From a virus: a stretch of DNA of 47,394 bases. Below the pieces are notes generated by a model. It was not told the origin of the DNA. It saw only the letters and a program-made list of their open reading frames with translations, and made no database searches. The DNA lies in IMG/VR virus record IMGVR_UViG_3300006149_000353; one strand, 5' to 3'. Positions 4,091 through 41,710 of the stretch are shown piece by piece (the stretch's first letter is position 1; each line of letters starts with the position of its first letter). A program made the position numbers and the translations under genes.

Positions 4091-5644
4091 ATGAAACGGG
4101 TATGGGCGGGTTTACTTTCAGCCGTTACAATAGTCTTTTGTTCGCTCGCGAATGCAGAAGTAAAGTCATCCATCCAGACAACTTTGAAAAACCTCTTTAC
4201 CATCAATGACGTGATGACAACCGTTGAATATTCAGACGATATGGAGGCTTATGCCGTTACGCTTCAAATAGATATACCCTATCAAGATGTTGAAAAAAAT
4301 AAGGATCAATGGGCTAAATTAAAGCAGAACGCTGAGGAAATGCTCATATCTGCAAGAGACTTTTTGTCCTTTTCGAATGAGCAAATTCCTGATATCTATT
4401 TAATGCTTGATTTTGCAGGAGAGAAAGAAGAAGGAGCAACTTTTGAGTATGAAATTTTAAGCACTGAAGACGGTATAGAAATTGTGTTTGATTGCTTGTC
4501 GGGAAAAGATTTGGAGAAGGATTCCGATGAAGAGGGCGGGATTGCCGCCTTTGAAAATTTGGCCTACGAAGTTTTAATTAAAAAAACGCTGACGCTTAAT
4601 CCGATTCTTCAAGAAATAGAAGGCGATGTTTCTTATTCGTGGTATTCATCCAACGAAGATGTTGCAACTGTATCAAAAGGGAAAGTTAAAGGTATTTCAG
4701 AGGGAACTTGTAAAATCACATGCGAGGTCACTGCACAGAATGGAAAGATTTATACGGCGGTTTGTGATGTTGATGTTTTGATACCTCTATCTTCCATCAA
4801 GTCAGATAAAACGAGCATTACTCTCCCGGCGCGTGGTGCAAGAGAATATACACCCATCCTGTCATTTTCGCCCGAAAATGCAACGCGAAAGAGCGTTACA
4901 TGGGAATCGTCAGATGATGGCGTCGCTTATGTTAATGAAGATGGTAATATTGTAGGAGGTTATTTCGCAGGGAATTGTACCATCACAGGAACAGCAAATG
5001 ACGGATCAGGTAAAAAGGTGAAAATCAAAGTTAAAGTCCCGGCGTGTTACATTGATATGGACAAAATCGAAGTAACAGAGGAGGAAGGGTTAGACGTTCC
5101 GATGGTGTTCGCGAATGGATATAGAATTGAAAATGGGCGTACCGCGCCAATTGTTCCTGATGTATATACGAAAAGCAAAAATTTCTCAGTCTCAACCGGC
5201 TATTATTTCAGCAACGCAGGAAGCGGGTGGGATAATGTTAGCATAATTCCTATTAAAGCGGGAAACGGGGATTTGATAATTGAAACAAATCCGTTTATGA
5301 GCAGGACAACAAAAACAGTCACCATAAAGAGCTCTGCCATTAGAAGCAAAAAAACATACCCGCCGATGGATATTGATCAGTTTTGTTCAGCGCCGGATCA
5401 GCACATCGGGGAAAAGGTTAGCATAAAGGGAAGTGCTCTAAATATACAGGACAACGGATTGACTCTCGCGTGTGATACGGACAAGACAAAGCATTACTTT
5501 TTCATAGATTCTGATGGATTTAATTTGAAGAATGAAGATGTGTATACATTCTATGGAATAGTTGACTCTTTTTCCACCTATGAAACGGAAACAGGGCTGA
5601 AATATGTGTGTCCTGTTTTGACGAAGGTTACCGTCGATAAGTAA
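4091..5644 (+). CDS. Secreted protein with bacterial Ig-like (Big_2) domains; moron
   Basis: Signal peptide MKRVWAGLLSAVTIVFCSLANA. Big_2-like segments VATVSKGKVKGISEGTCKITCEVTAQNGKIYTAVCDVDV and VTWESSDDGVAYVNEDGNIVGGYFAGNCTITGTANDGSGKKVKIKVKV. AGGAGG SD. Visibly AT-richer than its surroundings. Confidence 0.85.
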   Translation: MKRVWAGLLSAVTIVFCSLANAEVKSSIQTTLKNLFTINDVMTTVEYSDDMEAYAVTLQIDIPYQDVEKNKDQWAKLKQNAEEMLISARDFLSFSNEQIPDIYLMLDFAGEKEEGATFEYEILSTEDGIEIVFDCLSGKDLEKDSDEEGGIAAFENLAYEVLIKKTLTLNPILQEIEGDVSYSWYSSNEDVATVSKGKVKGISEGTCKITCEVTAQNGKIYTAVCDVDVLIPLSSIKSDKTSITLPARGAREYTPILSFSPENATRKSVTWESSDDGVAYVNEDGNIVGGYFAGNCTITGTANDGSGKKVKIKVKVPACYIDMDKIEVTEEEGLDVPMVFANGYRIENGRTAPIVPDVYTKSKNFSVSTGYYFSNAGSGWDNVSIIPIKAGNGDLIIETNPFMSRTTKTVTIKSSAIRSKKTYPPMDIDQFCSAPDQHIGEKVSIKGSALNIQDNGLTLACDTDKTKHYFFIDSDGFNLKNEDVYTFYGIVDSFSTYETETGLKYVCPVLTKVTVDK

Positions 5645-6049: not shown

Positions 6050-7144
6050 ATGGCATGTCGAAAGTGCAAGCGGGAAATCCCTGATGATTCGGTTTTTTGT
6101 CCTTGGTGCGGAATCAGGCAGGAAAAGAAGTCCGGAACACGAAAAAAAGGGAACGGAACAGGATATGCCTACAAACGTGGATCAACATGGACGGCATGTG
6201 TAACCATCGGTTTTTATACCGACAAAAGCGGCGTTGTCCATCGAAAATACAGGACCAAGGGCGGATTTCCAACCAAGACAGACGCCACAAATTATTGTCA
6301 ATCCCTTTTTGTCAGTACTAAGGCAAACAGTACGATGACCATGCAGGAAGTATACGACAAGTGGCACGATGAACATGAATCCCGTGTAGGATCAACAACG
6401 ATTAAAGGATATAGCGCCGCATATAAATGGTTTTCTCGTCTGCATTACATCCAGATGAGACTTATCAAGGCTACTGACTTACAGCAATGCATCGATGAAT
6501 GCCCGCGGGGGAAACGCGTAAAGGAGGACATGAAAACAGTAGCGGGCCTATTGTATAAATGGGCTTACAACAATGATGTCGTAGACAAAAATTATGCTAT
6601 CAACCTTTTTACGGGAAAGGACATCAAAGGAACACGGCCAGCGTTTACGATGGAAGAGGTTGAGAAGATCAGGCAATCTGTAGGGGTGAAGCCATACGCT
6701 GATTATGTGTACGTCCTAATTTATACTGGGTTTCGGCCTTCCGAACTGTTTGCGCTGACGAAATCCTCCTACAGCAATGGAATCCTCGTTGGCGGCGCGA
6801 AAACGAAGGCAGGCAAGAACAGGCTCGTTCCTGTATCGCCAAAAATAAAAAAAATCATCGAAGAAAGGTTCGCCGCCGACAGCGAATATCTCTTCCCCCG
6901 TGATCGCAAAAAAATGGATGAAGCATATTTCAGAAATGTGTGTTTTGCGCCTCTTATGGAATCGCTCGGAATCGCGAATCGTGTTCCGTACTCATGTAGG
7001 CATACGTTTGCTAACTTGCTTAAAAATGTAAGCGGGAGCGATACGGATAAAGCTGCCCTTATGGGACATGCGGACGCCTCTATGACTAAGTACTACCAAT
7101 CCGAAGAAATGACTATGCTAAAGCAGATTATTGACTCCCTATGA
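6050..7144 (+). CDS. int: Tyrosine recombinase / phage integrase with N-terminal zinc ribbon
   Basis: N-terminus CRKCKREIPDDSVFCPWCG. Catalytic-domain motifs TGFRPSELFAL, YSCRHTFANLL and LMGHADASMTKYY (R...HxxR...H...Y). Confidence 0.9.
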   Translation: MACRKCKREIPDDSVFCPWCGIRQEKKSGTRKKGNGTGYAYKRGSTWTACVTIGFYTDKSGVVHRKYRTKGGFPTKTDATNYCQSLFVSTKANSTMTMQEVYDKWHDEHESRVGSTTIKGYSAAYKWFSRLHYIQMRLIKATDLQQCIDECPRGKRVKEDMKTVAGLLYKWAYNNDVVDKNYAINLFTGKDIKGTRPAFTMEEVEKIRQSVGVKPYADYVYVLIYTGFRPSELFALTKSSYSNGILVGGAKTKAGKNRLVPVSPKIKKIIEERFAADSEYLFPRDRKKMDEAYFRNVCFAPLMESLGIANRVPYSCRHTFANLLKNVSGSDTDKAALMGHADASMTKYYQSEEMTMLKQIIDSL

Positions 7145-7197: not shown

Positions 7198-7244
7198 GAT
7201 GGTTCGGGACCAAAAGGCCGCGGGTTCGAATCCCGCCACTTCGA
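7198..7244 (+). other. attP core candidate: 3' portion of a tRNA gene (variable-arm-like hairpin, T-arm, 3' acceptor strand)
   Basis: GCGGG-TTCGAAT-CCCGC T-arm (7220-7236) followed by a 7-nt acceptor strand CACTTCG plus A. Upstream hairpin TGGT-TCGGG-ACCA. No matching 5' acceptor or D-arm upstream, so it is a fragment and not a gene. Confidence 0.55.
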
Positions 7245-7245
7245 C

Positions 7246-7282
7246 GCAGCAGCCCTTGAAAATCAAGGGCTGCTGTTTTTTT
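7246..7282 (+). terminator. Rho-independent terminator
   Basis: GCAGCAGCCCTT-GAAAATC-AAGGGCTGCTG followed by TTTTTTT. Confidence 0.75.
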
Positions 7283-7340: not shown

Positions 7341-7367
7341 AAGCGGGCAGAAATACACTGCCCGCTT
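7339..7367 (-). terminator. Rho-independent terminator ending the five-gene cassette
   Basis: Minus strand: AAGCGGGCAG-loop-CTGCCCGCTT followed by TTTT, immediately after the stop at 7374. Confidence 0.6.
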
Positions 7368-7373
7368 GAACTA

Positions 7374-8168
7374 TTACCCCTTCTTCGCGATGCACTCATA
7401 GTACATCTTGACCTTGCCATCCTTGGCGTCAGGATCGTCCATAAACGCCTTGGCCATGTCGGCGTAGAAATTGACGTTATCGACGCCGTGCTGCTTGGCA
7501 ACCTTGCAATAGTCGGAATACATGGCATTGATGACGGCAAAGAACTCCACGATCTTCTCCTTGCCTTCGATGCCGAAGTTCCGGGCGTACTGCTTGATCT
7601 CATCAAGAGACCACCGCTCACCCTTGGAGCCGTCCTCCTTGCGCATGGACTTCACCCAGCGCTTGGCTTCTTCCTCCGTCAAGTGCTTGCCCTGGCCTTC
7701 CTCGTAGGATTCGCCAAAGCCGATCATCGGCTCGCGCTCCTCCATTCGGCCACGGCTTTCTTCGCGGCGGCTGCCCATGTTATCCTGAGGCGGGCGATAC
7801 CTCCGGCCATATTCGCGCATATCCGTTACGTTCCCCCCATATTCGCCGCCATAGGGCGGATAATGCCGCATGGTCTGATCGTCATAACGATCCATTGGCG
7901 GATAGATCGGGATATAGGCATCCCATACGACGGTACCGACGCCGTCCATGGCCCGGCGCTCCTGCCGGTTTTCACGCGGCCAGACATCCTGATAGCGCAT
8001 ATCCTGACGATAGCGGCCATCATCCATGCCGTTGTCCATCGTATCCCGGCGGCGGTCGGTGTACTGGTTATTGCCCTCATCGCCTCTTGCGAATCGACCA
8101 TCTTCACGACGCCGCTGCCCGCCGCGGGAGGAAACCATCATCATCCGGGCAGTTCTGCTCATGCTCAT
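7374..8168 (-). CDS. Cassette protein E: Arg/Asp/Tyr/Met-rich low-complexity N-terminus plus a structured-looking C-terminal domain (264 aa)
   Basis: ATGA overlap with the upstream gene. N-terminus RRRDTMDNGMDDGRYRQDMRYQD...YPPMDRYDDQTMRHYPPYGGEYGG. C-terminus HLTEEEAKRWVKSMRKEDGSKGERWSLDEIKQYARNFG...MYSDYCKVAKQHGVDNVNFYADMAKAF. Confidence 0.75.
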   Translation of the reverse strand: MSMSRTARMMMVSSRGGQRRREDGRFARGDEGNNQYTDRRRDTMDNGMDDGRYRQDMRYQDVWPRENRQERRAMDGVGTVVWDAYIPIYPPMDRYDDQTMRHYPPYGGEYGGNVTDMREYGRRYRPPQDNMGSRREESRGRMEEREPMIGFGESYEEGQGKHLTEEEAKRWVKSMRKEDGSKGERWSLDEIKQYARNFGIEGKEKIVEFFAVINAMYSDYCKVAKQHGVDNVNFYADMAKAFMDDPDAKDGKVKMYYECIAKKG

Positions 8169-8575
8169 GCCGTAGCGCCTCCTTGTGCGGGGGCCGTCCC
8201 CGTGATAGCGGGCCGGTTATTGCTCCTTGCGCAGCATACGCGGCCCAGAAGGCGGAACGCACCGCCCGTTGGCGTGGTCGCGACCCTGGTTGCATACCTT
8301 GTCCGGGTACGGATGCCCGAGGCGGTGACAGGCGTTCCGTCACACGACAGCAGCGGATACGTCTCGGTTCCCGCGCCGATGGTGATGACAACCGGGGCCG
8401 TGATGGTTGTTGCCTCAGGGATCGCCTGAGCCACAACGAGGCAGTACTTGCAGTTGTTAGCATAAGCGCCTTCTGGCAAATTGATCGTCAGGGTGCCGCC
8501 CGCGAAGGTGACGGCCTGGCTGATAATCAGACGGTCACACAGACGGCAGGGATTGTTGCAAGCCATACTTTTCAT
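8165..8575 (-). CDS. Cassette protein D: Cys-containing, beta-rich-looking protein (133-136 aa)
   Basis: MACNNPCRLCDRLIISQAVTFAGGTLTINLPEGAYANNCKYCLVVAQAIPEATTITAPVVITIG. The likely start at 8566 follows AAAGGA. Confidence 0.7.
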   Translation of the reverse strand: MKSMACNNPCRLCDRLIISQAVTFAGGTLTINLPEGAYANNCKYCLVVAQAIPEATTITAPVVITIGAGTETYPLLSCDGTPVTASGIRTRTRYATRVATTPTGGAFRLLGRVCCARSNNRPAITGTAPAQGGATA

Positions 8576-8584
8576 CCTTTCTCA

Positions 8585-8610
8585 GGGGCGGCAGGAACAC
8601 CTGCCGCCCC
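8585..8610 (-). other. Strong GC hairpin inside the cassette (between genes C and D)
   Basis: GGGGCGGCAGG-AACA-CCTGCCGCCCC, a perfect 11-bp stem with no U-tract on the coding (minus) strand. Confidence 0.6.
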
Positions 8611-8623
8611 GAATGACAGCCGA

Positions 8624-9433
8624 TCAGGCTGCGCAGCCGTAGCAGCCGCAGTTGTGGTTGCTCGTGCCGCAATAGGGATAGGGCGCGGGAACCTGGTAAG
8701 AGGGGACGGGCTGGGGATGGATCGCGCCGACGCTGCGGTTGATGGCCGCGGTATTGGCGTCCATCGCCGCCATCAGGACAGCGTTCTGGTTGGACTGGGA
8801 GGCCGCCAGCTGCAGCTGGAAGATCTGCTGATTCTGCTCGGCGATCTTCGCGTCCTTGGCAGCAACAGCCTGAGCGCTCAGCGCGTCGAGGATGGCGCGG
8901 GTGCCGCTGTTCTGGCTGTCAATGATGTCACGGGCGGCTGTGTTGATGGTCTGCCGGGTGTCGCAGGACTGGGTAGCCAGGTCATAGCGCACGCCCTGGA
9001 TGGCGTTCTGCGTCTTGCAGCAGCAGTCCTGGAGGTTGTAGCCGAGCTGACACAGCGAGCGATCGACGCCGTTGAAGCCCTGCATCATGCCCATCTGGGT
9101 AGTGTTGAAGCCGCCGGTGATGGCGTTGTTGAGGGCGTAGGTGCTGTCGCAGATGCCCTGCTGGATGCCTGCAACGCTACGCTGAAGGTCGTTGAGCATG
9201 AAGCCGTCGGTGATGTCGGCGCGGGTCACCATGCCGCTGATGACAGGAACAACGCCGCCATTGCCGCCGTTGCCGTTGCCATTGCCAAAGCCCCACTGCC
9301 CACCGAAGATCAGGGCGATAATCAGGAAGGCGAAAATCCAAGAGCCGTCGCCGCCCCACATACCTCCGCCACCGTTGCCGCCGCCATTGCTGTCAGCGCC
9401 CAGGGCATAGCCAGTCGCAAAATCATTATCCAT
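8624..9433 (-). CDS. Cassette protein C: Gly/Asn-rich N-terminus with one TM helix, Cys-containing core, Gln-rich coiled coil
   Basis: MDNDFATGYALGADSNGGGNGGGGMWGGDGSWIFAFLIIALIFGGQWGFGNGNGNGGNGG..., then NLQDCCCKTQ, IAEQNQQIFQLQLAASQSNQN and a C-terminal CGTSNHNCGCYGCAA. AAGGAGA SD. Confidence 0.75.
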   Translation of the reverse strand: MDNDFATGYALGADSNGGGNGGGGMWGGDGSWIFAFLIIALIFGGQWGFGNGNGNGGNGGVVPVISGMVTRADITDGFMLNDLQRSVAGIQQGICDSTYALNNAITGGFNTTQMGMMQGFNGVDRSLCQLGYNLQDCCCKTQNAIQGVRYDLATQSCDTRQTINTAARDIIDSQNSGTRAILDALSAQAVAAKDAKIAEQNQQIFQLQLAASQSNQNAVLMAAMDANTAAINRSVGAIHPQPVPSYQVPAPYPYCGTSNHNCGCYGCAA

Positions 9434-9485
9434 GGTCATTCTCCTTTTGGTTGATTTATATCGTAACAGGGTGTGCACCCCCCGG

Positions 9486-9707
9486 TTACTTCAAAGGAAG
9501 GCCGAACTGTTTGGCAACGTCGTTTATGTTCAAACCGCGCTCACGGTACATGTTTTCTGCCGTCTGCCGAAGCTGGGCCGGATTCTTGCCGCCGATGATA
9601 TTCATCACCTGCTGAACCTGAGGCGTATTGCCAAACATCTGCTGCATCATCTGCATAGGGTTGCCGCCGCCGCGCATCATCTGCAAGAGCATCATCAGGG
9701 GATTCAC
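9486..9707 (-). CDS. Cassette protein B: small Met/Gln-rich protein (73 aa)
   Basis: GTG start in a GTGA overlap with the upstream stop. MNPLMMLLQMMRGGGNPMQMMQQMFGNTPQVQQVMNIIGGKNPAQLRQTAENMYRERGLNINDVAKQFGL. Confidence 0.65.
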   Translation of the reverse strand: MNPLMMLLQMMRGGGNPMQMMQQMFGNTPQVQQVMNIIGGKNPAQLRQTAENMYRERGLNINDVAKQFGLPLK

Positions 9708-10201
9708 TCGTCCTCAACCTCCATTCTTGCGCGCTGCTTCTGGCGCTTTTCCATGGCTTTAACGCGGTCGCTCAGGTCTTCCACCTGCTTGGCGAAGCTC
9801 TCAGCCAGTTGGTTAACCGCATCCATGGAGGCGTAGGAAACGGAAGGAGAAGGATCCCCCTGCTCCGGCTGATCCGACAGGCGATATTCCCGGAAATCAG
9901 ACCCGCCGGTGGCCGCGTTGAATTGCTTGGTGTAGATCACACCGTGACCCCGATCGACATACACACCAAGGGAGCCGTCAAAGCTGACCTGCTGGGCAAG
10001 GGCTTCCTCCTTGCCAGTTACAAGGGCCGCAAGAACCCCCGGCCTTTGAGGTGCTTGCTGCTGCGGATAAAACATTCCTTGCGCCGCGGGGGCTTGCATG
10101 GGCTGAACCATCTGCGGGGGCTGCTGACCCCGATCCGTGTAAGGGTTGGCCATGAAGCCAGGATTGTAACTGTAATTAGGGTACGGTATGGGTTGGCTCA
10201 T
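9704..10201 (-). CDS. Cassette protein A: Pro/Gln/Tyr-rich N-terminus, globular middle, coiled-coil tail
   Basis: MSQPIPYPNYSYNPGFMANPYTDRGQQPPQMVQPMQAPAAQGMFYPQQQAPQRP..., later AESFAKQVEDLSDRVKAMEKRQKQRARMEVEDE. GAGGTGA SD. Confidence 0.7.
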   Translation of the reverse strand: MSQPIPYPNYSYNPGFMANPYTDRGQQPPQMVQPMQAPAAQGMFYPQQQAPQRPGVLAALVTGKEEALAQQVSFDGSLGVYVDRGHGVIYTKQFNAATGGSDFREYRLSDQPEQGDPSPSVSYASMDAVNQLAESFAKQVEDLSDRVKAMEKRQKQRARMEVEDE

Positions 10202-10297
10202 CGTTATCACCTCGCTATGATTTTCGCAAAAATCGCATCAAAGGAACACGAAGTGAAAGCGCAATGAAAAAGCAAATCGTTAGTAATTTTCGGCAAT

Positions 10298-10323
10298 AAA
10301 AAAACCGGAGCCGTTCGCTCCGG
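10298..10323 (-). terminator. Rho-independent terminator separating the upstream unit from the cassette
   Basis: Minus strand: CCGGAGC-GAACG-GCTCCGG followed by TTTTTTT. Confidence 0.75.
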
Positions 10324-10346
10324 TAATGTTCCGTGATGTCGTTGTA

Positions 10347-10841
10347 TTACTTGTTTTCGTTCTCAGCGATGTAGGCAAGAGCATCTTTGTAGTTGCTGTG
10401 GGTGTACCAGGTCGGTACATAGCCTTCCCCGCCCTCGTTGTGGACGTTGTTGTATTCAGTTGCACGGCGTTTGGCCTGCTCCTCGTTATCCACAATATAG
10501 CCATGCTCGCAGGCTTCGACGATCTGCTTGCATTCCTCGACATGCTTCCGTATTCTTTCCAGCTCTTCCTCTTTCACGCGCTCGGCCTCGATGCGCTTAT
10601 AAGATTCCGCTTCCTCCTCGGTAATAATCCATGCCTGATTGTTGCATCCCTGGAATTCTCCGTCTGCGGGGCGGGCGGGCATGTCCTCCCATCCGATGTG
10701 CGGCAGCTCGATAGCATCGCCCTGGGCGATAAAGCCATAGTCCTGGTACCACTCTACATAGTGCGTCTTTTCTTCCTCGTTCAGCCTGCGGGCATTACTG
10801 ATGGTCACACCGTGTGCGGGGGAATATTCAATCGTAAGCAT
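10347..10841 (-). CDS. Hypothetical acidic protein (164 aa)
   Basis: Start MLTIEYSPAHG at 10841 after GAAAGGACAGAAAA. Coiled-coil EEEAESYKRIEAERVKEEELERIRKHVEE. No family recognised. Confidence 0.65.
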   Translation of the reverse strand: MLTIEYSPAHGVTISNARRLNEEEKTHYVEWYQDYGFIAQGDAIELPHIGWEDMPARPADGEFQGCNNQAWIITEEEAESYKRIEAERVKEEELERIRKHVEECKQIVEACEHGYIVDNEEQAKRRATEYNNVHNEGGEGYVPTWYTHSNYKDALAYIAENENK

Positions 10842-10885
10842 TTTTCTGTCCTTTCTGCCCTCGTAACCTCCGGGGCGGGTTGTTA

Positions 10886-11059
10886 TCATTCGATAGTGTA
10901 AACCGGGTAACCCGTAGGTGGGACGGCGTACCCTTCAACCTCTACCTCATAACGGTCTTGACGCTCATAAATTCGAACCTTTGCTTGTGCATTCTCAAGG
11001 CCGCGCACCTTTTCAATAAAAACACCGTTCATAAGTATATTGTAGTAAACTTTGGACAT
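10886..11059 (-). CDS. Small ORF (57 aa) missing from the ORF track
   Basis: My own translation: MSKVYYNILMNGVFIEKVRGLENAQAKVRIYERQDRYEVEVEGYAVPPTGYPVYTIE, preceded by AAAGGAAGC. It fills the gap upstream of 10347-10841. Confidence 0.45.
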   Translation of the reverse strand: MSKVYYNILMNGVFIEKVRGLENAQAKVRIYERQDRYEVEVEGYAVPPTGYPVYTIE

Positions 11060-11245: not shown

Positions 11246-11449
11246 ATGTCAAAGCATTATGAGCAACGCAAGGAATCCAATAAACGATATCTTTCCAACT
11301 TTGATAATATCGTTATGCGAGTGCCTAAAGAATCCGGCCTTAAGCAAACTATAACCGCTCATGCGGAAAGCATGGGGGAATCGGTCAACGCATTTGTTCT
11401 GCGCGCAATAAGCGAGGCAATGGAACGCGATTCCAAAAGAGCAAAGTAA
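11246..11449 (+). CDS. Ribbon-helix-helix (CopG/Arc-like) regulator
   Basis: MSKHYEQRKESNKRYLSNFDNIVMRVPKESGLKQTITAHAESMGESVNAFVLRAISEAMERD. GGAGGG SD. Confidence 0.7.
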   Translation: MSKHYEQRKESNKRYLSNFDNIVMRVPKESGLKQTITAHAESMGESVNAFVLRAISEAMERDSKRAK

Positions 11450-11453
11450 AAGA

Positions 11454-11480
11454 GGGGTGCGACCCTATCGGTCGCACCCC
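11454..11480. terminator. Bidirectional terminator hairpin between convergent genes
   Basis: GGGGTGCGACC-CTATC-GGTCGCACCCC, a perfect 11-bp stem with A/T-rich flanks. Confidence 0.65.
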
Positions 11481-11485
11481 TTCCA

Positions 11486-11665
11486 TCACTCAAGAAACCC
11501 CTTGTTTCGATGAACCACATACTGGACGCCGCGGGGCGACATACCGACCTCCTCGGCAAGAGATTCGTAGGTAATTCCGTCGATCAGCTTCCGTCTGAGG
11601 ATCATTCGATCCCGCTCGGAATGGATTCGTTCGGAAATTCGGAAGCTAAGCTCGCTGTTCAGCAT
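11486..11665 (-). CDS. Sigma-70 region-4-like / LuxR-type HTH mini-protein (59 aa), missing from the ORF track
   Basis: My own translation: MLNSELSFRISERIHSERDRMILRRKLIDGITYESLAEEVGMSPRGVQYVVHRNKGFLE. AGGAGG is 6 nt upstream of the ATG at 11665. Confidence 0.55.
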   Translation of the reverse strand: MLNSELSFRISERIHSERDRMILRRKLIDGITYESLAEEVGMSPRGVQYVVHRNKGFLE

Positions 11666-11703: not shown

Positions 11704-11967
11704 TCAATCCTTTTTCGGCGTATCGTAAGTCATTGCCTGCTTGCTGTCGCCAAGGCTCTTTGTGGTTGGATCGTTGACCACGCCCAGGATAGCCAGCACT
11801 GCAAAGACCGCGTTGACAGCGGCGAGAACGCGCTTGTCAAGGTCGCCGAAATCAAGGGCGAAACCAAAGATGGCGGCCACCGTCTGAACCAAAAGGAACA
11901 GCGCCGGGACCAGGGTGAGCCAGAAGTCGATGTTGCAAATCCTTACTTTCCAATTGATCTTGTTCAT
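11704..11967 (-). CDS. Holin (phage phi-LC3-type)
   Basis: MNKINWKVRICNIDFWLTLVPALFLLVQTVAAIFG...AVLAILGVVNDPTTKSLGDS matches the INWKVR...DPTTKG pattern of this holin family. Two TM segments. Confidence 0.8.
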   Translation of the reverse strand: MNKINWKVRICNIDFWLTLVPALFLLVQTVAAIFGFALDFGDLDKRVLAAVNAVFAVLAILGVVNDPTTKSLGDSKQAMTYDTPKKD

Positions 11968-11982
11968 GTCAATCCTCCTTAT

Positions 11983-12321
11983 TTATCGGCCTCGGAGCCA
12001 GTTGTCGATTTCTCCGCTTGCCTCTACCATGGTGTTGGTGTTTCCGTCGTGCAACTCATGTTCCAAAAGCGCCTGTACACCCGCGCATACGGCCATCAGA
12101 CCGGTTCTCAGGTCTCCAAGACGGTTTTCGTGATCGTCCAGCCGTCGCTTGTCCATGTCCAGCTTCTTCATCACATCGTCCATTCTTCCCACCATGTCCT
12201 CCTGGGGCTTGCGCCACTTGCGCAGGCGGTCGACGGTGGCGCCCACCAGGTTGATGACGGTGCAGATGCCCACCAACACCAGCAGCGCCCCCGTCACGTT
12301 GTTCAGTGTCAGCCAGTCCAT
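11983..12321 (-). CDS. Membrane-anchored coiled-coil protein of the lysis cassette (112 aa)
   Basis: Start MDWLTLNNVTGALLVLVGICTVINLVG overlaps the endolysin stop by one base (TGATG). One N-terminal TM helix, then charged helices. Confidence 0.7.
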   Translation of the reverse strand: MDWLTLNNVTGALLVLVGICTVINLVGATVDRLRKWRKPQEDMVGRMDDVMKKLDMDKRRLDDHENRLGDLRTGLMAVCAGVQALLEHELHDGNTNTMVEASGEIDNWLRGR

Positions 12322-13241
12322 CAGCTTGCCTCCTCGACAATTGTCGCCCCCGGATACAACCCCGCCAGCTTCTCCGCTTGCTCCCGGCTCAAACCGGTGA
12401 TGGTCACCGTGTAGATCACCACAGCGCCGGAAGCCGCCGCCCGACCCAGCGCCGCCCAGGTCTTCGGCCCCACAATGCCGTCCGCTTTCAGTCCGTGCGC
12501 CTGCTGAAACGCCTTGACCGCCGCCTCGGTTTCCGCGCCGAAGGAGCCGTCCGCGCCATGCTTGGGCAGGCTGTACCCGGCCCGCAGGAGCAGCCCCTGG
12601 GCCTCGACAACGGTCGGGCCTTTGGCACCTTTGCGGATGGTGTCGCGCTGCTCTGTACCGCTGCTGTTGCCGCCTGTGCCAAGCGCACCCTCTGACGGCG
12701 CGTCCGTCTCGCCGTCCACCAACGCATCCATCCCTTTGGGGATGGCGTAGTGCGTCCACCTGCCCGCGCTGATGGCGGTACGCACCACCCCTGTGTCATG
12801 CCCGGAGGCGTGGACGATCGTCCCGTCGCCCAGAGCAATGCCGGTATGGCCCATCGTGCCGGGCTTGTCCTCCCGATAGAGGATGCACAGCAGGTCATCC
12901 GGTGCGTCCTTGATGTCGCCTTTCCGCAGCCAGTCGCCTTTGCGCCACTGGCTGGTCGCGCCGCTGATGTTGACGCCCTCAATCCCCGCCGCCGCGCAGC
13001 CCCGGCGTACCAGCTGGGCGCAGTCGTAGCAAAGCTTGCCGTCGTACTTGCAGCCCGTACAGGCCGCCTGTTTGCCCCTCATCACCGGGCAATTGCTTCG
13101 GATGGCGGCGGCGCTGTTTGGATACTGTTCCGCCCTGGCCCTGCGGTAGGCCGGTGTGCAGCGCTGGCCTGTCCCGCCCATGACGTAGGGGCTGCCCACC
13201 TGGGCAAGGGCCCAGGCGCGGAGGGTGTCAGCTTTGGTCAT
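12321..13241 (-). CDS. Endolysin: NlpC/P60-type peptidase plus PG_binding_1 domain plus a short C-terminal extension
   Basis: N-terminus WALAQVGSPYVMGG...CYDCAQLV...GHTGIAL...VHASG (Cys/His peptidase). The peptidoglycan (PG)-binding motif is GPTVVEAQGLLLRAGY...DGSFGAETEAAVKAFQQAHGLKADGIVGPKTWAAL. Confidence 0.9.
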   Translation of the reverse strand: MTKADTLRAWALAQVGSPYVMGGTGQRCTPAYRRARAEQYPNSAAAIRSNCPVMRGKQAACTGCKYDGKLCYDCAQLVRRGCAAAGIEGVNISGATSQWRKGDWLRKGDIKDAPDDLLCILYREDKPGTMGHTGIALGDGTIVHASGHDTGVVRTAISAGRWTHYAIPKGMDALVDGETDAPSEGALGTGGNSSGTEQRDTIRKGAKGPTVVEAQGLLLRAGYSLPKHGADGSFGAETEAAVKAFQQAHGLKADGIVGPKTWAALGRAAASGAVVIYTVTITGLSREQAEKLAGLYPGATIVEEAS

Positions 13242-41007: not shown

Positions 41008-41550
41008 TCATGCGGCATAGGCCGCCTGCAGTCGTTTTCGGAGTTTGGCGACAAGCTTGCTGGCTTGCCCCTGCGTAACGCCGAGGGTTTGGGCAATATC
41101 CCGTTGCTTGGCGCCGTCCAGCAGCATTCGCGCGATGGTCTGATCCCGGCCTTCAAGGCGGCGGATGTCCTCAAGGATCATTCGCGTTTCCGTTTGAGCT
41201 TGTGTATCATCCTTGGCCGGGATGGATTCGCCGAGCGTTACTTCTTTGTGTCCATCGGTGATGGAGCGGTCAAGGCTATCCTTTTTGCGGACGTCGCGGC
41301 ACTGAGCGTATTCGTTACGGATGGCCATCCGCATATCGTTGAGAATCACTCGGACCGCATAGGTGGAAAAGCAAAAACCGCTGTCGGCTTCATAGCCCAT
41401 GGCGGCCTTGCACAGGCCGAAACAGCCGATCTGATACAGGTCATCCGCGTCGATGACGGCAGGATAAAACCGTAGCACACGGCGGATAGCAAGGCCCACG
41501 AGCCCCATGTTCTGCTCTGCCAGCCAGCGCTGACTATCGGTCATCTGCAT
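41008..41550 (-). CDS. Sigma-70 family RNA polymerase sigma factor (regions 2 and 4 only), resembling sporulation-type SigF/SigG
   Basis: Start MQMTDSQ after AGGAGG. Region 2: DDLYQIGCFGLCKAAMGYEADSGFCFSTYAVRVILNDM. Region 4: RDIAQTLGVTQGQASKLVAKLRKRL. Confidence 0.8.
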   Translation of the reverse strand: MQMTDSQRWLAEQNMGLVGLAIRRVLRFYPAVIDADDLYQIGCFGLCKAAMGYEADSGFCFSTYAVRVILNDMRMAIRNEYAQCRDVRKKDSLDRSITDGHKEVTLGESIPAKDDTQAQTETRMILEDIRRLEGRDQTIARMLLDGAKQRDIAQTLGVTQGQASKLVAKLRKRLQAAYAA

Positions 41551-41710
41551 GGGAGACCTCCTGACGCTCCACGCGCAAGCCGTACTCGACGGTCTTACCT
41601 GTAGGGGTGCGCTTGCGCTTGATCTGGGTGACGGTATAGCCGTTCTTGACGAGGATCCCGGCGACAGCAATGCGGTCTTCCTCCCGGACAATCATGAGGT
41701 CAGTCTTCAT
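41534..41710 (-). CDS. Hypothetical small protein (58 aa)
   Basis: MKTDLMIVREEDRIAVAGILVKNGYTVTQIKRKRTPTGKTVEYGLRVE after AAAAGGAGG. Confidence 0.55.
   Translation of the reverse strand: MKTDLMIVREEDRIAVAGILVKNGYTVTQIKRKRTPTGKTVEYGLRVERQEVSHADDR

Follow-up and report, generated by a model that had tools for sequence, protein, structure and literature searches.

Five small genes, denoted here A to E, form a cassette on the minus strand of the window, that is, the complete 47,394-nt stretch of viral DNA with the IMG/VR record IMGVR_UViG_3300006149_000353, to which the numbering refers throughout unless another locus is named. Judging from its genomic distribution, the cassette behaves as a portable, phage-restricted, self-contained operon because one and the same cassette occurs in unrelated phages and is nearly absent from plasmids. 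Here we describe the gene set and gene order of this unit, its insulation, its associated regulator gene (R), its distribution and the natural fusions among its proteins, and we propose subunit contacts, a topology and a function for its products. The predicted anatomy, in which a regulator-controlled operon gives rise to a membrane-associated stalk-head complex with disordered arms, is reasonably supported. Far more tentatively, we favor a cell-directed role for this complex at the level of the membrane, of the superinfection exclusion or defense type, exerted from an accessory operon with its own helix-turn-helix (HTH) regulator.

The cassette and its regulator in phage genomes

A check of the open reading frames (ORFs) of the window showed that genes A to E are co-directional and occupy positions 7374-10201 (Table 1). 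They are coupled as described in the first-pass annotation, which had been made from the sequence alone: the stop codon of A and the GTG start codon of B share the GTGA at 9704-9707, and the stop codon of D and the ATG start codon of E share the ATGA at 8165-8168. Gaps of 52 nt and 48 nt separate B from C and C from D, respectively, and a Shine-Dalgarno-like sequence is located 7-9 nt before the start of A, C and E. The second ATG of D, at 8566 (133 aa), is more likely to be the start codon than the first one, at 8575 (136 aa), because it fits both the family N-terminus, MAC(K/N)N, and the public gene call.

A search of one genome per species with the profile of D yielded 80 loci, mostly from Oscillospirales; cultured hosts among these include Anaerotruncus colihominis, Flintibacter muris, Acutalibacter, Colidextribacter and Pseudoflavonifractor. 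Gene patterns were determined by searching every ORF of the fetched loci iteratively with hidden Markov models (HMMs). The order A-B-C-D-E was detected in 44 of about 89 loci, and the patterns A-B-C-D and A-C-D in 15 and 13 loci, respectively; the loci outside these three patterns are interrupted by contig ends. The gene order is constant across all loci, and its recurrence in dozens of independent loci is beyond chance, so that the co-occurrence of the genes as a block, which the first-pass annotation had proposed to check, is established. Gene A, present in 75 loci, is the first gene of the block every time. Gene B was detected in 63 loci; elsewhere (in the A-C-D loci), its slot is filled by another gene, of about 75 aa. 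In the A-B-C-D and A-C-D loci, D is followed by a variant of E with the same R/G/Y/D-rich repeat ('GRYSRD / GR(F/Y)AP') and other helical ends. Cassettes of the A-C-D type also encode two conserved proteins that have no match in Pfam, one of 125-129 aa, encoded 1-3 nt before A and ending in '...GHVV.V.DG.YYDTWDSG.E.P.Y.W' (L033, 4448-4825; L002, 6006-6386; L059, 1846-2235; L044, 949-1335), and one of 104 aa, encoded after the E variant.

The cassette is insulated from its surroundings. Terminator-like hairpins are located within 250 nt upstream of A in 33 of 69 loci and within 150 nt downstream of E in 28 of 45 loci, compared with 33 of 420 random windows (8%), a 6-8-fold enrichment on both sides. 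In the window itself, which had been predicted to contain a terminator at either end of the cassette, the upstream one was called by the terminator scan; downstream, a hairpin is present after E that the scan missed because its T tract is short.

The genomic position of the cassette is variable, with at least four different contexts. Most genes directly before A encode endolysins and holins, namely Amidase_2 (nine cases), CHAP (four), M23 (three), GH25, holin_1 (three) and holin_6_1 (two) proteins; the downstream neighbors are integrases in at least 15 cases, host genes at the prophage end, and scaffold and capsid genes in two cases. Two phages, bajarodcaudo virus 2 and Dulem virus 35, carry the cassette in the head module, with portal/minor-capsid genes on one side and scaffold/capsid genes on the other; these head-module copies look like insertions because they come with their own R, the one in Dulem virus 35 also with an upstream terminator. 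In one phage, the cassette is placed after a co-directional integrase. The att- or integrase-proximal site, a classical location of prophage accessory genes, recurs in Firmicute, Bacteroidota-type and archaeal-virus genomes, and the window conforms to the placement between the lysis genes and the attachment (att) site noted in the first-pass annotation, with the holin and endolysin on one side and the integrase and att core on the other.

Cassettes with 58% identity in C, 60% in D and about 33-36% in A and E are found in phages with other holins, lysins and tails, and relatives are labeled as sipho-, myo- and podoviruses. The loci from bacterial genomes are prophage contexts. Among the 72,556 plasmids of PLSDB, D is absent and C has a single match, in a Vescimonas replicon. 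Thus, neither PLSDB nor the genome loci show the spread over plasmids and chromosomal islands that is typical of defense systems.

The insulated, co-occurring block postulated in the first-pass annotation stands, but conservation indicates that it is not strictly a five-gene unit: a regulator gene belongs to it as well, making six. The 59-aa product of this gene, R, is a protein of the sigma-70 region-4/LuxR-like HTH type that matches Pfam Sigma70_r4_2 with an E-value of 1.2e-4, under the gathering score; in some loci, R is a GerE/LuxR-type small HTH protein. In 55 of 75 loci, a small region-4-like ORF (59-100 aa) with the same orientation precedes A by no more than 1.5 kb, mostly by 30-370 nt, and the copy in L093 clears the Pfam cut-off for Sigma70_r4. 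In prophage L010, which is 94% identical to the window, R lies 127 nt upstream of A, and in the window, a 1.19-kb insertion relative to L010 (10254-11447) parts R from the cassette leader. We consider R a candidate sixth member of the unit and regulator of the cassette. Another relative, L009 (95%), has a near-identical cassette, a different type of R and different DNA upstream of position 10232; such an exchange of R type and upstream DNA between near-identical cassettes would look like what is expected of a regulator/operator pair.

The insertion in the window contains an Arc/ribbon-helix-helix-like gene (11246-11449, plus strand), a 57-aa gene (10886-11059, minus strand) and a 180-aa Glu-rich gene (10347-10889, minus strand) with its terminator. 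None of these genes, the Arc-like one included, is present in any other fetched locus. The 57-aa and 180-aa genes were considered as members of the module and dropped for this reason and because they belong to the insertion relative to L010.

The leader of the cassette carries an extended -10-like sequence, TGCGAAAAT, at 10220-10228 and the ribosome-binding site GAGGTG, from which we infer that it contains the promoter. The promoter scan of the window called no canonical sigma-70 site on the minus strand before A, sigma-70 promoter scans were nowhere above chance, and a promoter motif common to the cassette and other operons of the window was looked for and not found. Upstream of A, 7 of 69 loci contain a phase-spaced hexamer in 3-5 copies exactly 11 nt apart, compared with 0 of 1380 shuffles; with one mismatch permitted, the enrichment of 11-nt-spaced repeats is modest (13% vs 4% in other real sequence). 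The repeats lie 60-110 nt upstream of A (in L014, L022, L040, L046, L051, L073 and L084), and the hexamers, TGATAG, TGATAA, GATACG and TGACGT, are phage-specific. These repeats are candidate operators of the small region-4-like regulator. In the window, the stretch 10233-10300 displays merely a loose TTGC/TTCATT periodicity.

Protein products and the predicted complex

Searches of A to E against Pfam, PHROGs, NCBIfam and PADLOC returned DUF7841 and function-less PHROGs alone, with 0 families of PADLOC-DB at E<=1, and their profiles compared with PDB sequences gave nothing other than coiled-coil noise and one designed protein. There were no significant virion-family matches in Pfam, PHROGs or PDB, no matches to holin or XhlA families in Pfam or PHROGs, and no nucleic-acid-binding domain was detected with Pfam. 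The statement of the first-pass annotation that none of the products can be assigned to a virion, lysis, lysogeny or known defense function thus holds, and composition counts and hydropathy reproduced the compositions ascribed to A to E, including the one hydrophobic segment of C. By hydropathy, A, B, D and E contain neither a hydrophobic segment nor a signal peptide.

Protein C belongs to phrog_16490 (E 1.5e-66) and has more than 4699 relatives in a large protein collection, all unannotated and without a Pfam domain. It contains 38 Gly and 10 Cys residues and consists, from the N- to the C-terminus, of a conserved acidic N-terminus, a hydrophobic segment, three long helices and a Pro/Tyr-rich end. 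The hydrophobic segment is single, 13-17 residues long, has Trp and Gly runs on its flanks, and is kept in the Firmicute, Bacteroidota and archaeal-virus versions of C; there is no signal peptide. Invariant Cys residues include a CCC motif, and the tail reads CGCYGC here and (G)CGC(G)C in the family. The AlphaFold2 (AF2) model of C is unreliable, with a predicted local distance difference test (pLDDT) score of 45, and secondary structure alone was taken from it.

Protein D is the best-conserved member of the cassette, with 3045 relatives in the large protein collection at about 70% identity, likewise all unannotated and without a Pfam domain. Its eight Cys residues include an N-terminal CxxxCxxC motif, further conserved positions and a C-terminal CC. 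The AF2 model of D (pLDDT 74.5, predicted template modeling score 0.70) is an eight-stranded beta-sandwich, for which Foldseek found nothing below E 0.1 in PDB, the best match being a phage baseplate/fiber chain (E 0.16). In BFVD, the model matched uncharacterized homologs and, weakly, tail-fiber, T7-fiber and collagen-like C-termini (E 1e-4 to 1e-3; template modeling (TM) score 0.4-0.5). Judged from the model, D probably has a new fold. Of the fold comparisons suggested in the first-pass annotation, the one for D could thus be completed, and that for C foundered on its poor model.

A natural C-D fusion of 366 aa, recovered in two assemblies that probably derive from one sample, has normal A, B and E on its flanks. 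The Cys-rich tail of C and the CxxxCxxC motif of D are precisely absent from it, and the stalk continues into the beta-sandwich. BFVD also includes a crAss-like 'DUF7841 domain-containing protein' with a D-like fold (87 columns, root-mean-square deviation 2.1 A). The fusions, the translational coupling of D with E and of A with B, and the invariant gene order suggest a chain that runs from C, the stalk, through D, the head, to E, with C, D and E in contact within one complex.

Protein E (R33/G27/D25/E24/M20/Y18) begins with a disordered R/D/Y/M/G-rich part of about 150 residues, which is followed by the helical DUF7841 domain in the C-terminal 110 residues (E 8.8e-27; 94.1 bits against a Pfam cut-off of 25.2). 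In every one of the 1464 representative clusters of DUF7841, the domain is C-terminal. E also has a weak match to a 'tail chaperonin' PHROG (E 0.02). By eye, the alignments of DUF7841 (7377-7721 in the window) show a conserved acidic loop (DDxDA/DDxDG) that resembles the calcium-binding DxDxDG motif.

Protein A (Q20/A17/P15) consists of a disordered Pro/Gln/Tyr-rich N-terminus, a small conserved core (V.S..EA.A...F.G....PD...G.IY.K..N..tG) and a C-terminal coiled-coil/charged tail; it has a weak match to phrog_21718 and no relatives in Pfam, NCBIfam, PADLOC or PDB. Protein B (M11/Q10) is helical, with NPxxMxQ-type repeats; its weak, sub-threshold similarity to XPC-binding/ubiquilin (STI1-like) domains is a lead, not a result.

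Beyond Firmicutes, homologs of C were detected in many crAss-like phages (HMM E 8e-30 in cr116_1; more than 588 IMG/VR contigs), in the cultured Bacteroides uniformis phage C3_41T2LP (E 2e-35) and in two viruses assigned to Methanomassiliicoccales (E 7e-17). The genes after C in C3_41T2LP encode a Cys-containing beta-rich protein, a coiled-coil protein, a 77-aa R/D/Y-rich protein, and then a true DUF7841 protein (59.3 bits) and a PolyVal/SprT-like metallopeptidase; the module sits among SSB, RecT, YqaJ and resolvase genes. The D-like protein of this phage (D2) ends in '...GIFRLMGV', compared with 'GAFRLLGR' in D, and the similarity of the two is suggestive at most (hhalign probability 25%, pairwise E 8e-4). 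The six-gene Bacteroidota-type version is present in more than 50 of 80 IMG/VR loci, often with an integrase after it; the archaeal-virus copy of C is located upstream of an integrase, and in cr116_1, about 1.2 kb separate holin/carboxypeptidase genes from a C/D pair downstream of them, which in turn is upstream of head genes. Sequence comparison thus indicates a core of C, a D-like protein and DUF7841 that is common to phages of Bacillota and Bacteroidota, with C reaching archaeal viruses. That the module is conserved in different phyla, and C even in different domains, points to a target common to very different cells.

Two further links between the versions were rejected, A as a homolog of the Bacteroidota-type coiled-coil protein A2 (hhalign probability 2%) and B as the split-off N-terminal domain of the Bacteroidota-type C (0.6%). 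Small HExxH metallopeptidase-like proteins of the PolyVal/SprT-like kind (L175, 8770-9234; L092, 8685-9080 and 6105-6452; L090, 11139-11456) accompany the Bacteroidota/crAss-type module; one is encoded after a Firmicute-type cassette, and none near the cassette of the window. A diversity-generating-retroelement reverse transcriptase is encoded a few genes upstream of the C homolog in the archaeal virus (L176, 4152-5186; vir215), and such reverse transcriptases were likewise found in two Bacteroidota-type loci. No cultured phage with a Firmicute-type cassette was present in the phage collection searched.

In the complex that we propose, the single hydrophobic segment of C, with its Gly and Trp flanks, would anchor this protein in the cytoplasmic membrane, from which a long coiled-coil stalk would extend. 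The beta-sandwich of D would top this stalk, with a joint formed in this lineage by the CGCYGC end of C and the CxxxCxxC end of D. E would bind D via DUF7841 and add a long R/D/Y-rich disordered arm, whereas A, with its P/Q/Y-rich arm and coiled coil, and B would be assembly or partner subunits, the Met/Gln-rich B possibly shielding the hydrophobic segment of C. Because no subunit has a signal peptide, the complex is predicted to assemble on the cytoplasmic face of the membrane. There, it would exclude or interfere with incoming phage DNA or other membrane events, and would not be part of a virion or a spore.

Possible roles of the complex

We tentatively prefer an exclusion-type role because the cassette is portable, insulated, equipped with its own regulator and att-proximal in three host groups, and because the cytoplasmic membrane is the sole obvious target common to all hosts. 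An unknown membrane-associated defense system, the alternative named in the first-pass annotation, would be a candidate as well. Several observations weigh against this preference. R ends the late operon in the window and, if it is an activator, would direct late-lytic expression, a poor fit to exclusion in a lysogen. To our knowledge, the exclusion systems described so far consist of one small protein each rather than of five or six gene products, and PADLOC gave no match for A to E. The charges next to the hydrophobic segment of C are weak (0.4 K/R and 1.7 D/E on the N-flank, 0.6 K/R on the C-flank), and the model of C is of low confidence. The fold of D is weakly similar to fiber tips, records of crAss-like and Bacteroides phages label C as 'spike protein' or 'viral fiber', and crAss-like genomes of about 100 kb carry the module with no integrase nearby. 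A crAss 'spike protein' described in one paper is a different protein from C.

Some of the same facts could be accommodated by a virion accessory, which we regard as somewhat improbable, taking together a trimeric fiber or spike of C and D (stalk and tip) that decorates the particle and a set that is packaged and ejected with the DNA, in which the C segment would enter the target membrane, B would be a holdase, and E and A chaperones or disordered cargo. The matches of D to fiber-type and collagen-like C-termini and to the baseplate/fiber chain, the labels of C and the position of R at the close of the late operon all fit this possibility, as do a membrane-type segment in C combined with the lack of signal peptides in all subunits, the metallopeptidase of the Bacteroidota-type module and the weak tail-chaperonin match of E. 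The copies in the head modules of bajarodcaudo virus 2 and Dulem virus 35, and the one upstream of the head genes of cr116_1, point the same way, but those in the head modules bring their own R and resemble insertions, and the cassette is mostly located outside structural modules, behind a terminator, rather than in a tail or baseplate module. Furthermore, no significant match to a virion family was obtained, and the roughly 70% conservation of D is far above that usual for receptor-binding tips. Unrelated structural genes and morphotypes around one cassette are hard to square with a specific docking site, and carriage by phages with unrelated virions therefore argues against a part that docks on a particular virion. 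An accessory role in lysis or egress, in which a late membrane complex would tune holin-endolysin lysis by a logic like that of XhlA or antiholin sets, is unlikely: these phages already encode canonical holins and lysins, terminators separate the cassette from the lysis genes, and no holin or XhlA family was matched. It would account for the predominance of endolysins and holins directly upstream of A, for R following the holin in the same orientation, for the proximity of the C/D pair to the holin/carboxypeptidase genes in cr116_1, and, the cytoplasmic membrane being common to bacteria and archaea, for the distribution of C. The cassette adjoins endolysin or holin genes in most Firmicute loci, but not where it is found in the head module, next to or after an integrase, or among recombination genes.

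The function suggested in the first-pass annotation, a lysogenic-conversion cassette for the spore coat, exosporium or a cell-surface layer, possibly sigma-driven, is largely refuted by the host distribution, and we consider it highly improbable. Cys-, Tyr- and Gly-rich low-complexity compositions do recall coat and exosporium proteins, the beta-sandwich of D recalls the BclA head (a resemblance only), many hosts belong to Oscillospirales, and some loci encode an R of the GerE/LuxR type. However, A to E belong to no spore-coat or exosporium family (CotY/Z-ExsY, CdeC/CdeM, BclA) in Pfam or NCBIfam, lack signal peptides and contain no collagen repeats. The module is not restricted to spore formers: a homologous version is carried by Bacteroides and crAss-like phages, and C by viruses assigned to Methanomassiliicoccales. 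These hosts form no spores and differ in their envelopes, a distribution that rules out a role specific to spores or to the Gram-positive envelope. Nor does the supposed sporulation-type sigma factor of the phage provide a link: it is a group-3 sigma factor (41008-41691, minus strand; Pfam Sigma70_r2), and the score of its best PDB match, sigma-F (6.6e-11), is so close to that of FliA (1.2e-9) that it gives no evidence of sporulation. This protein is probably a transcription regulator of the phage. The complex could also be a membrane-tethered organizer, with an anchored coiled coil and prion-/RGG-like arms that nucleate a condensate or tether and concentrate phage DNA, RNA or assembly intermediates, by a logic as in phi29 p16.7. 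Proteins A, B and E carry long arms of low complexity (rich in P/Q/Y, in M/Q and, with GRYSRD-type repeats that are also present in the E variants, in R/G/Y/D, respectively), the module of C3_41T2LP lies among recombination genes (SSB, RecT, YqaJ, resolvase), and the module is phage-restricted; given that this idea draws on composition and one genomic context, that most genomes have the cassette at their late or att end and that Pfam detected no nucleic-acid-binding domain, we hold it to be quite unlikely. Finally, the module might represent a cross-domain class of phage membrane machine with an anchored stalk, a new-fold Cys-knotted head, prion-/RGG-like arms and a mini-sigma-like switch, serving a step that has no described equivalent, for example, as a membrane-tethered condensate that organizes or protects infection, or as a universal membrane-entry/exit device of Firmicute, Bacteroidota and methanogen viruses. 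We deem this broader proposal rather improbable.

Relation to known modules and features of the window

E and C are bona fide members of Pfam DUF7841 and phrog_16490, respectively, to which no function is assigned, and literature searches on these two families, as well as on C3_41T2LP, MB20-41 and the methanogen-virus compendium, gave nothing relevant. As far as the literature was searched, the linkage of DUF7841 and phrog_16490 with D, A, B and R in one operon is undescribed, and no solved structure, described function or literature mention of any component was found. The cassette shares carriage by phages, autonomy, flanking terminators, location between lysis genes and att, and varied positions with morons, such as bor and lom of lambda or the lysin-attP genes of Gram-positive siphophages, but consists of five or six genes with a dedicated regulator, not one or two, and is also found in crAss-like genomes lacking a nearby integrase. 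The superinfection-exclusion proteins Sie2009 of lactococcal phages, gp15 of HK97 and Imm of T4 have in common with it a membrane-anchored protein, an accessory position and a proposed action at the cytoplasmic membrane; there is no sequence or family kinship, and those proteins are single and small, in contrast to the predicted multi-subunit stalk-head complex with disordered arms. Fiber tips and BclA-type trimeric heads likewise combine a coiled-coil stalk with a small beta-sandwich head, which form one polypeptide in the natural fusion; here, the similarity is marginal (TM score 0.4-0.5), collagen repeats are lacking, the stalk has a membrane-type segment, and the genes lie outside tail modules. 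XhlA of the Bacillus phages PBSX and SPP1 resembles C in its coiled coil, one hydrophobic segment and, in most Firmicute loci, position beside holin and endolysin genes, but there is no family match, gene order and size are different, and a terminator separates the cassette from the lysis genes. By exclusion, the cassette appears to be a new kind of module, the function of which may yet be a new route to a known task, such as exclusion, a fiber or lysis control.

With thousands of relatives of C and D and about 1,500 DUF7841 clusters, the module is among the more abundant parts of the gut-virome 'dark matter', and the cassette is carried by prophages of at least 80 bacterial species and by hundreds of crAss-like contigs. 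Five anonymous ORFs can now be treated as a defined unit, with a candidate regulator, a five-gene operon, predicted C-D-E contacts and a probably new fold in D. Should the complex serve in exclusion or egress, the competition of phages with one another in the gut would be shaped by it. Cultured handles are available: the prophage of Anaerotruncus colihominis DSM 17241 (about 1,677,013-1,679,800 of NZ_CP102255.1), the prophages of Flintibacter muris DSM 110149 and Acutalibacter sp. 1XD8-33, and the lytic-plaque Bacteroides phage C3_41T2LP.

Table 1. Genes and sequence elements of the cassette and its surroundings in the window
Feature	Position	Strand	Remarks
A	9704..10201	-	165 aa
B	9486..9707	-	73 aa, GTG start
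C	8624..9433	-	269 aa
D	8165..8566	-	133 aa
E	7374..8168	-	264 aa
Cassette leader with putative promoter	10202..10253	-	read from sequence; kept in L010 from 10253 on
Intrinsic terminator	10304..10324	-	called by scan; ends the inserted 57-aa/180-aa unit, directly before the leader
Hairpin, probable cassette terminator	7341..7367	-	6 nt past the E stop; 10-bp stem, 7-nt loop
R, 59-aa HTH protein	11486..11665	-	after the holin, last gene of the late operon
Terminator after R, end of the late operon	11453..11481	-	12-bp stem, 9 GC pairs, then T run
Holin (canonical Phage_holin_1)	11704-11967		flank of the cassette
Endolysin (NlpC/P60 + PG_binding)	12321-13241		flank of the cassette
Tyrosine integrase	6050-7144		flank of the cassette, att side
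att core, tRNA/tmRNA-like 3' fragment (T arm)	7200..7240	+	context, outside the module

The alignment of the window with prophage L010 stops at 7200, inside the tRNA/tmRNA-like fragment. Positions 7219-7236 fit the 3' end of the tmRNA model (E 7e-4), and ARAGORN found no complete tRNA at the att core. A strong 14-bp hairpin (7246-7276) lies just past the att core. Next to the integrase, a large Big_2 (bacterial Ig-like) protein is encoded at 4091-5644 (plus strand), and a comparable Big_2 gene follows the cassette in the unrelated phage L090 (11554-12876); this protein is possibly a surface or lysogenic-conversion protein.

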